DNA from: Planktothrix pseudagardhii
GTDB lineage: Bacteria; Cyanobacteriota; Cyanobacteriia; Cyanobacteriales; Microcoleaceae
NCBI RefSeq assembly: GCF_904830925.1
Contig: NZ_LR882967.1
Coordinates: forward strand, 3,490,106 to 3,554,105
Direction: 5' to 3'
DNA: 64,000 nt
Shown here piece after piece: positions 28,850 through 30,697 of this stretch. Below the pieces are notes generated by a model. The model ran no database searches. It was not told the DNA's origin and worked only from the letters and a program-made list of their open reading frames with translations. The position numbers were made by a program, and so were the translations under genes. Positions within the stretch are counted from its first letter, which is position 1, and the number at the start of each line of letters is the position of its first letter.

Positions 28850-28858
28850 GATGCAACG

Positions 28859-28945
28859 ATGAGTCGCTATGTTATCAACATTCTAGCCAGCCATGACCTC
28901 AACGAGATTGCTGAGTATTTTGCCAACCACTATTTAACAGTTAGA
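28859..28945 (+). pseudogene. parE: ParE/RelE-family toxin, 5' remnant (first ~28 codons) truncated by the AT-rich insertion
   Basis: MSRYVINILASHDLNEIAEYFANH fits the ParE N-terminal consensus (M..Y.v.....A..DL..I..YIA). Beyond about codon 29 the reading frame is simply antisense to the C-terminus of the 28934-30451 gene and loses ParE similarity. Confidence 0.5.
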
Positions 28946-30451
28946 AAGAAGCTCAACAACTTTTTGAGCAACTTGATCCGCTTTTTTACGAAGTTCTTGC
29001 AAATCAGAACAAACAGAAAATGAATTTTCGCAAGCCAAAAATAACATCGTGTAAAAATTATCTTGACTAATTGATGTTTTCTTTTTATTACAATAAGAGC
29101 GCACTTTATTAACTTCATCGTTTACGAAGCATAGAGACGCACTGAAAAAAAAGTGACCTTTAATATGCTGAGATGGTTTATGATTTATTAATTGTTCTTT
29201 TAATGAACTAAATTCATGATCTTCTAAATTTAAGCTTCGTATGGCTTTTAGTAAATTTTCCTGCCAGGTAACGTGCAATGAAATTTCTGGCTCATCAGCA
29301 ATAAAAATAACACTTCTGTTGTCTTGCAACAAAACCTCCAAAAATTGGATTAGTAATTGCTTTTCCCCAGATGATAAGCTAGTCCACATAAATTTTTTAT
29401 TGCTCTCTTGAGCTATATAAAATGATAGTTCGCCAGTCTTATTATCATACTCAAATTTTTTGTTATCCATAAATCTGTGAAGTGTATCAAAAAAGTTCTG
29501 GCGAGCTTCTGTTATTTTATTTTTTTCGTTTTCTGACTCGGTTAGTGAATTAATAATATGGCTTGTTCGATAAATTAGAGGTAAAGCAAATACATGGTCA
29601 ACTTGATATCCACTATTTTTATTTTCATTTTTTAATCCAACTATAGCATCTTCTATTTTTTGTATATGAATGTCAATATCTTGGTTTTTACCTTGAATTC
29701 CTAGTTCTTTGAATGCTTGATATAATTTCTCGCTTAAGCTCTTCAAATCAATTTTACTTAATTGAGTTGCTTTAGGACTAAATTGATCAAATTTCTCGTT
29801 GTATAGTAAAGATAAAACTGTATCTTGCTGAAATCTTTTTGAAATTTCATTGAGTCTGGTTTCTAACTTTAATTGATATCTAGCAAACTTTTCAAATAGC
29901 TGCCTTAGTCTCTCATCAACAGCAGAAATTCTTTGACGAGGATCGGATTCTAAACTATCATCATAGGATTGCCTATATACAGATATTTGTGAAATCTCTA
30001 CTAAGCTGGAAAGTTCTTTTTTGAGGTTAAGTTGCTCTTCTCTAATATGTGCAGGAATTCTCCAGTATGGTTCACGACGTCTCACAACACGAGAAGACTC
30101 TATGAAAAGACGATACACTTTTTGTCCTACTTTATATTCATATGTATCCAATCCCATATTTTCATCGGATATTTGTTTCTCAAGCCTAATTGTTTTAGTT
30201 CGTTTGGGTTTACGATCAATCAAATCGATCCGTATAGATTTAAACTGAAGAATAGATAGCTGGATTAAGTCTAAAGATAGGGTAGCAGCTATTAAATTAA
30301 CAAAAGTTGATTTACCAGTTCCATTAAGACCGATAAAAATAGTTACATCTTGATTGAAGATAGCAGATGCTTTCTTCGTCCCCCAAAATCCTTCAACCTC
30401 AACACGCTTTATAATCACAAAAACTTCCTCATAGTATTTAGTTGATCGCAT
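28934..30451 (-). CDS. Solitary ABC/SMC-like ATPase (AAA_15/AAA_21-type, RecF/OLD-N-terminal-like head with ~270-aa coiled-coil insertion) in an AT-rich island
   Basis: It has Walker A (FIGLNGTGKST), a long coiled-coil region, the ABC signature (LSSGEKQLL), Walker B (VIFIADEPE) and an H-loop (SLH). About 110 C-terminal residues are of unknown function. GC is about 30% by eye against about 40% in the flanks, and there are no HIP1 sites. Confidence 0.8.
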   Translation of the reverse strand: MRSTKYYEEVFVIIKRVEVEGFWGTKKASAIFNQDVTIFIGLNGTGKSTFVNLIAATLSLDLIQLSILQFKSIRIDLIDRKPKRTKTIRLEKQISDENMGLDTYEYKVGQKVYRLFIESSRVVRRREPYWRIPAHIREEQLNLKKELSSLVEISQISVYRQSYDDSLESDPRQRISAVDERLRQLFEKFARYQLKLETRLNEISKRFQQDTVLSLLYNEKFDQFSPKATQLSKIDLKSLSEKLYQAFKELGIQGKNQDIDIHIQKIEDAIVGLKNENKNSGYQVDHVFALPLIYRTSHIINSLTESENEKNKITEARQNFFDTLHRFMDNKKFEYDNKTGELSFYIAQESNKKFMWTSLSSGEKQLLIQFLEVLLQDNRSVIFIADEPEISLHVTWQENLLKAIRSLNLEDHEFSSLKEQLINHKPSQHIKGHFFFSASLCFVNDEVNKVRSYCNKKKTSISQDNFYTMLFLACENSFSVCSDLQELRKKADQVAQKVVELLSNC

Positions 30452-30697
30452 CTAAGATTTTCTAAACCTGGATTTGTCATGAGAGTTGTCCATCGGCATA
30501 AGTAAAAAAATGTTACCTTATGGCTGAGTTGATTGAAAAAATTTTATATATTTCAAAAATAAAAAACTATAGAATTTAAACAAAATTAATATTTTTCTCC
30601 CCCGTATTGACCCAAACCCCAACACAACCGTGATCCCTATCACACAACTCTAATTCGTATCAGAAGATAGTGGATTTACAGTATTTAGGCCACAACC

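Follow-up and report, generated by a model that had tools for sequence, protein, structure and literature searches.

A probable fused remnant of a PARIS-like ariA-ariB operon beside a truncated parE in Planktothrix pseudagardhii

PARIS (phage anti-restriction-induced system) is a defence system composed of AriA, an ATP-binding cassette (ABC) ATPase, and AriB, a DUF4435/Toprim nuclease (Rousset et al. 2022, PMC9122126; Burman et al. 2024, PMC11464382; Deep et al., PMC10802264). The AriA oligomer keeps AriB inactive until a phage trigger frees the nuclease, after which tRNA is cleaved and translation is stopped (PMC11464382). In Escherichia coli AriB, the N-terminal Toprim domain carries the catalytic residues E26, D30, D88, E90, and E122, and a helical bundle makes up the C-terminus (PMC11464382, PMC10802264). 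Single-chain AriA-AriB fusions also occur naturally (PMC11464382). Here, we describe a locus of the cyanobacterium Planktothrix pseudagardhii within a stretch of 64,000 nucleotides (contig NZ_LR882967.1, positions 3,490,106 to 3,554,105), hereafter the window, to which all unlabelled coordinates refer. The minus strand at ~28928-30600 very probably holds the remnant of a two-gene PARIS-like operon, with ariA and ariB fused by an internal deletion, in a variable chromosomal slot. The locus has a chimeric gene structure, lacks conserved motifs, adjoins a truncated parE, and forms a lineage-specific cassette.

A convergent open reading frame (ORF) of 505 residues (28934-30451, minus strand) abuts the parE stump, just as an earlier note on the bare letters of the window had described. 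Its product is 100% identical to WP_254174068.1 / CAD5957481.1, which carries the database name "AAA family ATPase". The features of the cassette and of the adjoining parDE module are given below; L001 and similar labels denote the loci and contigs of relatives used for comparison, and P0005 and P0122-P0124 denote homologous proteins.

28595-28849, plus strand: parD, an intact gene for an 84-residue ribbon-helix-helix antitoxin, without a functional toxin partner (Pfam ParD_antitoxin and homologues)
28859-28927, plus strand: parE stump, first 23 codons, MSRYVINILASHDLNEIAEYFAN (identity with ParE residues 1-23 of L078 and L077)
28859-29023, plus strand: ParE-like ORF of 54 residues (ORF listing)
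28928-28933, no strand: left junction of 6 nt (CACTAT), from the parE stump to the stop codon of the ariB-like remnant (alignment)
28934-29227, minus strand: ariB-like remnant, codons 409-505 of the fused ORF plus the stop codon (tblastn, alignment, phmmer)
29228-29236, minus strand: putative deletion junction AGCTTAAAT, codons S406-L407-N408 (comparison with the L001 and L002 genes)
29228-30451, minus strand: ariA-like part, codons 1-408, of an ABC ATPase (Pfam, PADLOC, PDB, alignment)
30452-30604, no strand: AT-rich region upstream of the cassette and right junction (blastn, alignment)

The ariA-like part shows the architecture characteristic of AriA, an ABC ATPase whose N- and C-terminal lobes are separated by a coiled-coil insertion. 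The motifs read earlier from the translation are present: Walker A (GLNGTGKST, residues 41-49, 30305-30331), the signature LSSGEKQ (residues 359-365, 29357-29377), and Walker B (VIFIADEPE, residues 381-389, 29285-29311). A GTG at 30418 is a possible true start. Pfam assigns this part to AAA_15 (5.6e-14) and AAA_21 (4e-7), and the best PADLOC matches of the ORF are the AriA models PDLC04164 (3.5e-27) and PDLC02979 (1.2e-15). Lower PADLOC scores are obtained for mad3, PtuA (5e-14), HEC-01A, NsnB, and GajA (2.2e-7, residues 380-423 only). The best PDB matches are AriA chains (8v45/8ux9/8v46, E = 1.5e-12, query residues 15-406 against 7-412 of 464), and in PADLOC the intact relative P0005 is likewise best matched by AriA (7e-38), with AbiLi at 4e-14. 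The placement among defence-type ABC ATPases that the sequence had first suggested is thus supported, with AriA of PARIS as the best match.

The ATPase core is incomplete. A search with the 505-residue ORF found 361 relatives, 119 of them non-self among the matches listed. In all 119, query coverage is at most 80% (mostly 78-80%), and most are 420-450 residues long; these relatives, typically of ~430 residues, align to residues 1-408 of the window ORF only. The window ORF tracks the family to ...LLKAIRSLN, WQENLLKAIRSLN (residue 408), after which the relatives read ENAQLIIATHSPDIVADF... to their stop codon, the stretch that holds the H-loop. This continuation (...LNENAQLIIATHSPDIV) is absent from the window ORF, in which the conserved ...ENAQLIIATHSPDIV... 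C-terminus of all relatives is gone after residue 408. The ariA-like part therefore falls short of its last ~31 residues, including the ATHSP H-loop, and the H-loop previously credited to this gene is a property of its relatives. An H-loop in the tail was also considered and rejected, as the histidines there are AriB-derived. An AlphaFold2 model of the chimera is poor (predicted local distance difference test 57.9, predicted template modelling score 0.40), with residues 377-488 poorly modelled.

The remaining residues of the ORF, 409-505 (LEDHEFSSLKEQLINHKPSQHIKGHFFFSASLCFVNDEV...VAQKVVELLSNC), are homologous to the last ~97 residues of DUF4435 proteins up to their natural stop. These proteins were obtained by translating the DNA downstream of the relatives' ATPase genes. 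By tblastn, residues 185-279 of the L001 AriB-like protein match window positions 29242-28952 with E = 4e-31, and residues 409-505 are 63%, 52%, and 47% identical to AriB-like residues ~190-280. A phmmer search with the tail alone against 1.84 billion representatives returned 11 proteins, and the long ones, of ~280 residues, match at their C-terminal end (for example, residues 191-282 of 283); all six that were scanned belong to Pfam DUF4435. The 97-residue tail alone matches no Pfam or PADLOC model. The ariB-like remnant corresponds to the C-terminal helical part of the protein, and the Toprim part is absent. What had been taken for an uncharacterised C-terminal tail is accordingly the C-terminus of an AriB-like partner.

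In the relatives, this partner is encoded by a gene of its own. Six loci had enough downstream DNA for a survey of the partner gene (L001, L002, L084, L085, L086, and L087), to which the viral contig L091 was added. In L001, L002, L084, L085, and L086, a DUF4435 gene of ~280 residues lies directly downstream of the ATPase gene, overlapping its stop codon or at most 60 nt away. In L087, an ISL3 transposase gene separates the ATPase gene from the DUF4435 gene. The latter is shortened to 199 residues (L087 4001-7387; KB217478.1, an 8.79-Mb cyanobacterial genome), which makes L087 another decayed example of the same AriA/DUF4435 family. The ATPase-DUF4435 pair also occurs on the IMG/VR viral contig L091. 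No HNH gene was found in any of the six loci, where the downstream partner is DUF4435 throughout. The partners match only the AriB models of PADLOC (1.5e-16 and ~1e-10) and Pfam DUF4435. Their invariant residues in cyanobacteria, E25, D29, D75, D77, and E100, all fall within the segment (residues 1-189) that is deleted in the window; an adjacent AriB with a Toprim active site is encoded in L001, L002, L084-L086, and L091 and is missing from the window.

These comparisons bear on the proposal, made in the earlier note, that the gene encodes an ABC/SMC-like ATPase that stands alone, carries a novel domain of ~110 residues at its C-terminus, and makes up a defence module either by itself or with the orphaned ParD. 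Such a gene would fit the lack of an adjacent full-length nuclease gene and the many defence ATPase models that are matched. It is nonetheless extremely unlikely: the "novel domain" is the C-terminal end of a DUF4435 protein, the obligate partner in this family, so the nuclease is present as a 97-residue stump, and the ATPase itself is truncated. ParD, moreover, belongs to a separate parDE unit of ~630 bp that is found elsewhere without the ATPase, and nothing suggests that it has been co-opted by the cassette.

The fusion is best accounted for by an internal deletion in an ariA-ariB operon. By blastn, the two halves of the cassette align to L001 4130-5329 and 6018-6257, and relative to L001 the window is missing ~662 bp, which correspond to the last 31 ATPase codons and the first 189 partner codons. 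The ariB gene normally begins in the -1 frame, overlapping the ariA stop codon, and a deletion of the ~662-bp length class brings the two genes into one frame. The window junction reads CGA AGC TTA AAT / TTA GAA GAT. At the same place, the ariA homologues read ...AAC TTA AAT GAG AAT (L001) and AAG CTT AAT GAA (L002), and the ariB homologues read AGC TTA AGC ATA CTC GAA GAT (L001) and AGC TTG AAT CTA GAC (L002). The direct repeat of 9 nt, AGCTTAAAT, encoding Ser-Leu-Asn in both proteins, is therefore the likely substrate of the deletion, and the window would retain the one copy of it that survived. The deletion looks recent because the tail has neither stop codons nor excess divergence: it is 63% identical to L001, versus 53% between the AriB C-termini of L001 and L002, at similar AriA identity.

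Two rearrangements very probably shaped the remnant. In the operon, a deletion of ~0.66 kb took the ~31 last codons of ariA with the H-loop and the ~189 first codons of ariB with all of the Toprim acidic motifs; two copies of AGCTTAAAT probably mediated it through slippage or recombination. The reading frame was by chance restored, yielding the 505-residue chimeric ORF. At the other end, ariB was joined to parE codon 23 at a point no more than 6 nt beyond the ariB stop codon, with removal of about three quarters of parE and of whatever lay downstream. By homology to PARIS, an AriA oligomer in the intact ancestor would have sequestered AriB and, upon sensing a phage protein, would have released it to cleave tRNA. 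Lacking a nuclease and retaining only an incomplete ATPase, the chimera itself most probably no longer works in defence.

The parD gene is intact, as first reported: its product matches Pfam ParD_antitoxin (PF03693, 25.2 bits, cut-off 21) and along its whole length shares 93-94% identity with P0122-P0124 from P. tepida, P. mougeotii, and a cluster of Joint Genome Institute (JGI) contigs. The ParD loci of L077 and L078 carry an intact ParE of 97 residues that starts MSRYVINILASHDLNEIAEYFAN-NNVEAGEQ... and matches Pfam ParE_toxin (PF05016, 3.8e-16). The 23 codons of the stump are identical to its residues 1-23, nucleotide homology to parE ends at 28927, and the stop codon of the ariB remnant follows 6 nt on. 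The truncation of parE inferred at the outset is thus real, with 23 codons retained rather than the 24-28 residues then estimated. The 54-residue ORF has no ParE_toxin match and encodes no full-length ParE. No remainder of parE was found to the right of the cassette in the six frames of 30400-30720.

Toxin decay is also seen in other parDE loci. In the JGI contigs L078-L083, parE (9265-9558 in L078, and equivalents) encodes 97 residues in L078, 77 residues in L079-L082, and 40 residues in L083, with an identical parD throughout; to judge by these sequences, toxin decay with retention of the antitoxin has occurred repeatedly in Planktothrix populations. The parDE unit of ~630 bp is probably itself mobile, because it is 95-96% identical between lineages when the adjacent permease gene is only 85% identical and because it lies at a different locus in P. 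mougeotii (L077). In addition, 68 bp around the psaB terminator hairpin (28362-28429), upstream of parDE, recur with 91% identity at L077 9598-9665, downstream of parE, which suggests a mobile parDE cassette that may target or carry the hairpin sequence.

The cassette lies between two further genes that serve as landmarks for locus comparison.

26115-28346, plus strand: psaB (ORF listing)
30698-33316, plus strand: homologue of the major vault protein (MVP) (ORF listing)

Orthologous loci were reached through ParD homologues; anchoring on the vault gene in genome contigs gave 73 loci, with one close relative (L057) and no Planktothrix genome. P. tepida PCC 9214 (L076, LR882970.1) has the same gene order as the window: an OppC-like permease, a flavin adenine dinucleotide (FAD) monooxygenase, a small ORF, psaB, parD, the slot, the vault gene, and HD-GYP. 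Its flanks are 97.4% identical to the window on the left (23000-28412, 5.4 kb) and 99.8% identical on the right (30590-36000, 5.4 kb), a difference that may reflect a recent recombination event between the two species to the right of the slot. In P. tepida, parE breaks at the equivalent of window position 28887, with 9-10 codons left, and the slot holds an unrelated gene of 412 residues (L076 9286-10524, minus strand) that belongs to no Pfam family. The product of this gene starts with a signal-peptide-like segment, continues into a helical middle part, and ends in a hydrophobic stretch rich in Gly/Ala. The gene may also be 3'-truncated, because its stop codon falls inside the parE-homologous stump.

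Similarity to the right flank of the window resumes at ~30590-30605 in P. tepida and at ~30625 in L057, an Oscillatoriales metagenome-assembled genome that lacks 23721-30625 entirely. The JGI contigs L078-L083 carry the permease gene, then parD and parE, then a truncated HD gene, with no psaB, ATPase gene, or vault gene. The GAF-HD-GYP gene of the window (547 residues, 33442-35085, minus strand) is cut to a 192-residue HD fragment in these contigs (L078 9991-10569), further evidence that the whole interval from the permease to HD-GYP is probably prone to rearrangement. By lineage, the slot thus contains a PARIS-like pair (the window), a 412-residue protein (P. tepida), or nothing (other Planktothrix-type contigs).

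From these alignments, the cassette is lineage-specific cargo in a variable slot. Because the sequence beyond it holds no remainder of parE, its junction with parE stems from a replacement or a deletion and not from a clean insertion. No target-site duplications and no direct, inverted, or terminal repeats were found at the two junctions; the ORF listing holds no transposase or integrase, no tRNA gene lies nearby, and an Rfam family search was negative. The locus thus shows none of the duplications, repeats, integrase, or two gene halves that mark insertion of a mobile element. The original proposal of a recent horizontal insertion holds insofar as lineage-specific DNA does stand at a truncated parE, and fails as to a simple insertion. 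The comparison of orthologous loci that was advised along with it did recover an intact parDE without the ATPase (L078).

Base composition adds little to the case for horizontal origin. The segment at 28850-30650 is indeed AT-rich, as noted from the start: its GC content is 32.2%, against 39.2% for the window, and it is the lowest 1.8-kb stretch, with 39.1-40 kb and 57.1-57.5 kb nearly as low. The contrast is nevertheless weaker than had been argued. Compared with the 32 other ORFs of at least 200 residues, the 505-residue ORF has a GC content of 31.6% (z = -1.84), and its GC content at third codon positions is 22.9% (z = -1.27), within the native range of 22.5-50%. The neighbours psaB (48%) and the vault gene (49%) are GC-rich outliers that exaggerate the difference. 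Low GC is a family trait, because members of the family in other hosts are AT-rich too, with 34% GC in L001, a contig of 43%, and 32% in L002, a locus of 46%. A horizontal origin would fit the low GC but is not proved by it. The highly iterated palindrome 1 (HIP1) site GCGATCGC is absent from 28850-30650, as had been observed. The flanks, however, are not full of such sites, as had also been claimed: the 64 kb hold 25, with the nearest at 26949 and 32489. In 1.8 kb, 0.70 sites are expected and P(0) = 0.49, so their absence carries no statistical weight as evidence of insertion.

Several points weigh against a decayed PARIS-like pair in the form proposed here. At parE, the evidence fits insertion followed by deletion no better than a single replacement event. 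By sequence, and also with a 5-sequence profile, the AriB-like partners gave no match to E. coli AriB in the PDB. For this reason the assignment to PARIS proper rests on the PADLOC and Pfam models and the AriA match, and the clade is called PARIS-like. No undeleted close relative of the cassette was found (the nearest listed ATPase is 76% identical), so the ancestral repeat is deduced from more distant homologues. The 505-residue ORF, and with it the evidence for the deletion, comes from one genome only. Finally, its 505 codons are uninterrupted in AT-rich DNA, as they would be in a functional chimera under selection.

The restriction to a single assembly could also reflect an assembly or sequencing artefact, in which case the real genome would hold an intact ariA-ariB pair. 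In line with this, the 20-22-mers spanning the two junctions are absent from a metagenome collection save for one 23-nt chance match (L092). An artefact is still very unlikely, given that a 9-nt repeat is far too short to collapse an assembly whose record is a 6.6-Mb contig. The deletion is also clean and in frame, and like decay appears in independent data, namely parE in P. tepida (L076) and L079-L083 and the pair split by an insertion sequence in L087.

The uninterrupted frame raises instead the prospect of a chimera that has been neo-functionalised, for instance as a nuclease-free AriA scaffold still able to bind ATP and phage anti-restriction proteins (a decoy or sponge) or as a regulator that uses the AriB helical domain. 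All three of Walker A, the signature, and Walker B are preserved, divergence of the tail from AriB C-termini does not exceed that among the C-termini themselves, and natural AriA-AriB fusions provide a precedent (PMC11464382). We regard such a function as decidedly improbable. Among 361 relatives (119 non-self listed), this architecture is found in one genome only; the H-loop and the C-terminal ATPase strands are gone, and natural AriAB fusions keep both domains complete. The AlphaFold model is poor across the fusion (residues 377-488), no sigma-70-like promoter was found upstream on the minus strand, and a recent deletion explains the intact ORF equally well.

A degenerate ariA-ariB pair thus remains the preferred reading, and its surroundings follow a similar pattern. 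ParE and AriB, two neighbouring toxic effectors, have both been lost, and their non-toxic partners survive; for AriB as for the adjacent ParE, selection may have tolerated or even favoured losing the toxic effector. A more far-reaching scheme seems to us quite unlikely. In it, the interval between parD and the vault gene would be a recombination hotspot at which Planktothrix lineages swap accessory or defence cargo, the orphan ParD would persist for its anti-addiction role, and the chimera would persist because it still acts, for instance as a nuclease-free sensor or decoy for phage anti-restriction proteins.

The genes on either side have features of their own. The psaB gene stands alone, with no psaA upstream, and is probably an alternative PsaB2-type paralogue, of a kind described earlier (PMC4582080). 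It lies in a block of ~4.8 kb (23737-28543) that also contains a FAD-dependent monooxygenase gene (23758-25212, plus strand) and a small ORF (25232-25558, minus strand); P. tepida (L076) has the block, and both L057 and the Planktothrix-type JGI contigs L078-L083 lack it. The vault homologue is a protein of 872 residues with Pfam Vault repeats and an MVP shoulder domain (E = 2e-66). Its 73 related loci are found in cyanobacteria, Thiotrichaceae/Thiomargarita, Anaerolineae, and Chloroflexaceae, and bacterial MVPs have already been reported (bioRxiv 10.1101/872010; PMC3762200). Between psaB and parD, a perfect 28-nt palindrome, GTAGAGACGCGCCATGGCGCGTCTCTAC, at 28468-28495 is flanked by imperfect inverted repeats of 35 nt and lies inside a 128-bp stretch (28413-28540) that is missing at the same place in P. 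tepida. A second copy with 1 mismatch occurs at 51427-51454, and the palindrome looks like a small dispersed palindromic element resembling a miniature inverted-repeat transposable element.

The main value of this analysis is a correction: the gene is a pseudogene-like chimera, and no new family should be founded on the ORF or on its "novel tail". As a degenerate member of a known defence family that has undergone ordinary gene decay, the module would not surprise a specialist. The comparison also indicates that filamentous and colonial cyanobacteria share a widely distributed PARIS-like AriA/DUF4435 clade, that toxic-effector systems decay in place, by deletion at a short repeat here and by an insertion sequence in L087, and that in Planktothrix the psaB2-parD-vault region serves as a variable slot.

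Among known systems, Septu (PtuA/PtuB), Gabija (GajA/GajB), AbiL, and the OLD nucleases share with the window protein the AAA_15/AAA_21 ABC fold with a coiled-coil insertion. Unlike in Septu, the relatives' partner is DUF4435 and not the HNH protein PtuB, and the PtuA models score below AriA. Unlike in Gabija and the OLD nucleases, the 505-residue ORF contains no Toprim segment and has no adjacent helicase gene; the relatives' partner is DUF4435 and not the UvrD-like helicase of Gabija.

With intact ParDE modules, the locus shares a complete parD, 23 identical codons of parE, and the same spacing (parD stop codon, 9 nt, parE start). The window ParE lacks residues 24-97, however, so no toxin is possible and ParD is an orphan. 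Like the fused AriAB proteins (PADLOC PDLC02981, 694 positions), the window protein has AriA-derived followed by AriB-derived sequence in one polypeptide. It matches only positions 250-355 of that profile (best stretch, in the ATPase half, E = 2e-9), and natural fusions have ~690 residues with both domains complete, against 505 residues here.

PARIS itself is the closest counterpart. It differs in that the window AriA lacks its last ~31 residues and the window AriB lacks residues 1-189, with the remainder forming one ORF of 505 residues. The cyanobacterial AriA-like proteins as a group are also shorter, at ~430 versus 464 residues, and a PDB sequence search does not connect their partners to E. 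coli AriB, from which these have diverged too far. As in PARIS, the relatives of the cassette are two-gene operons in which the ATPase gene precedes the DUF4435 gene with overlapping stop and start codons, and the pair on a viral contig fits the association of PARIS with mobile elements.

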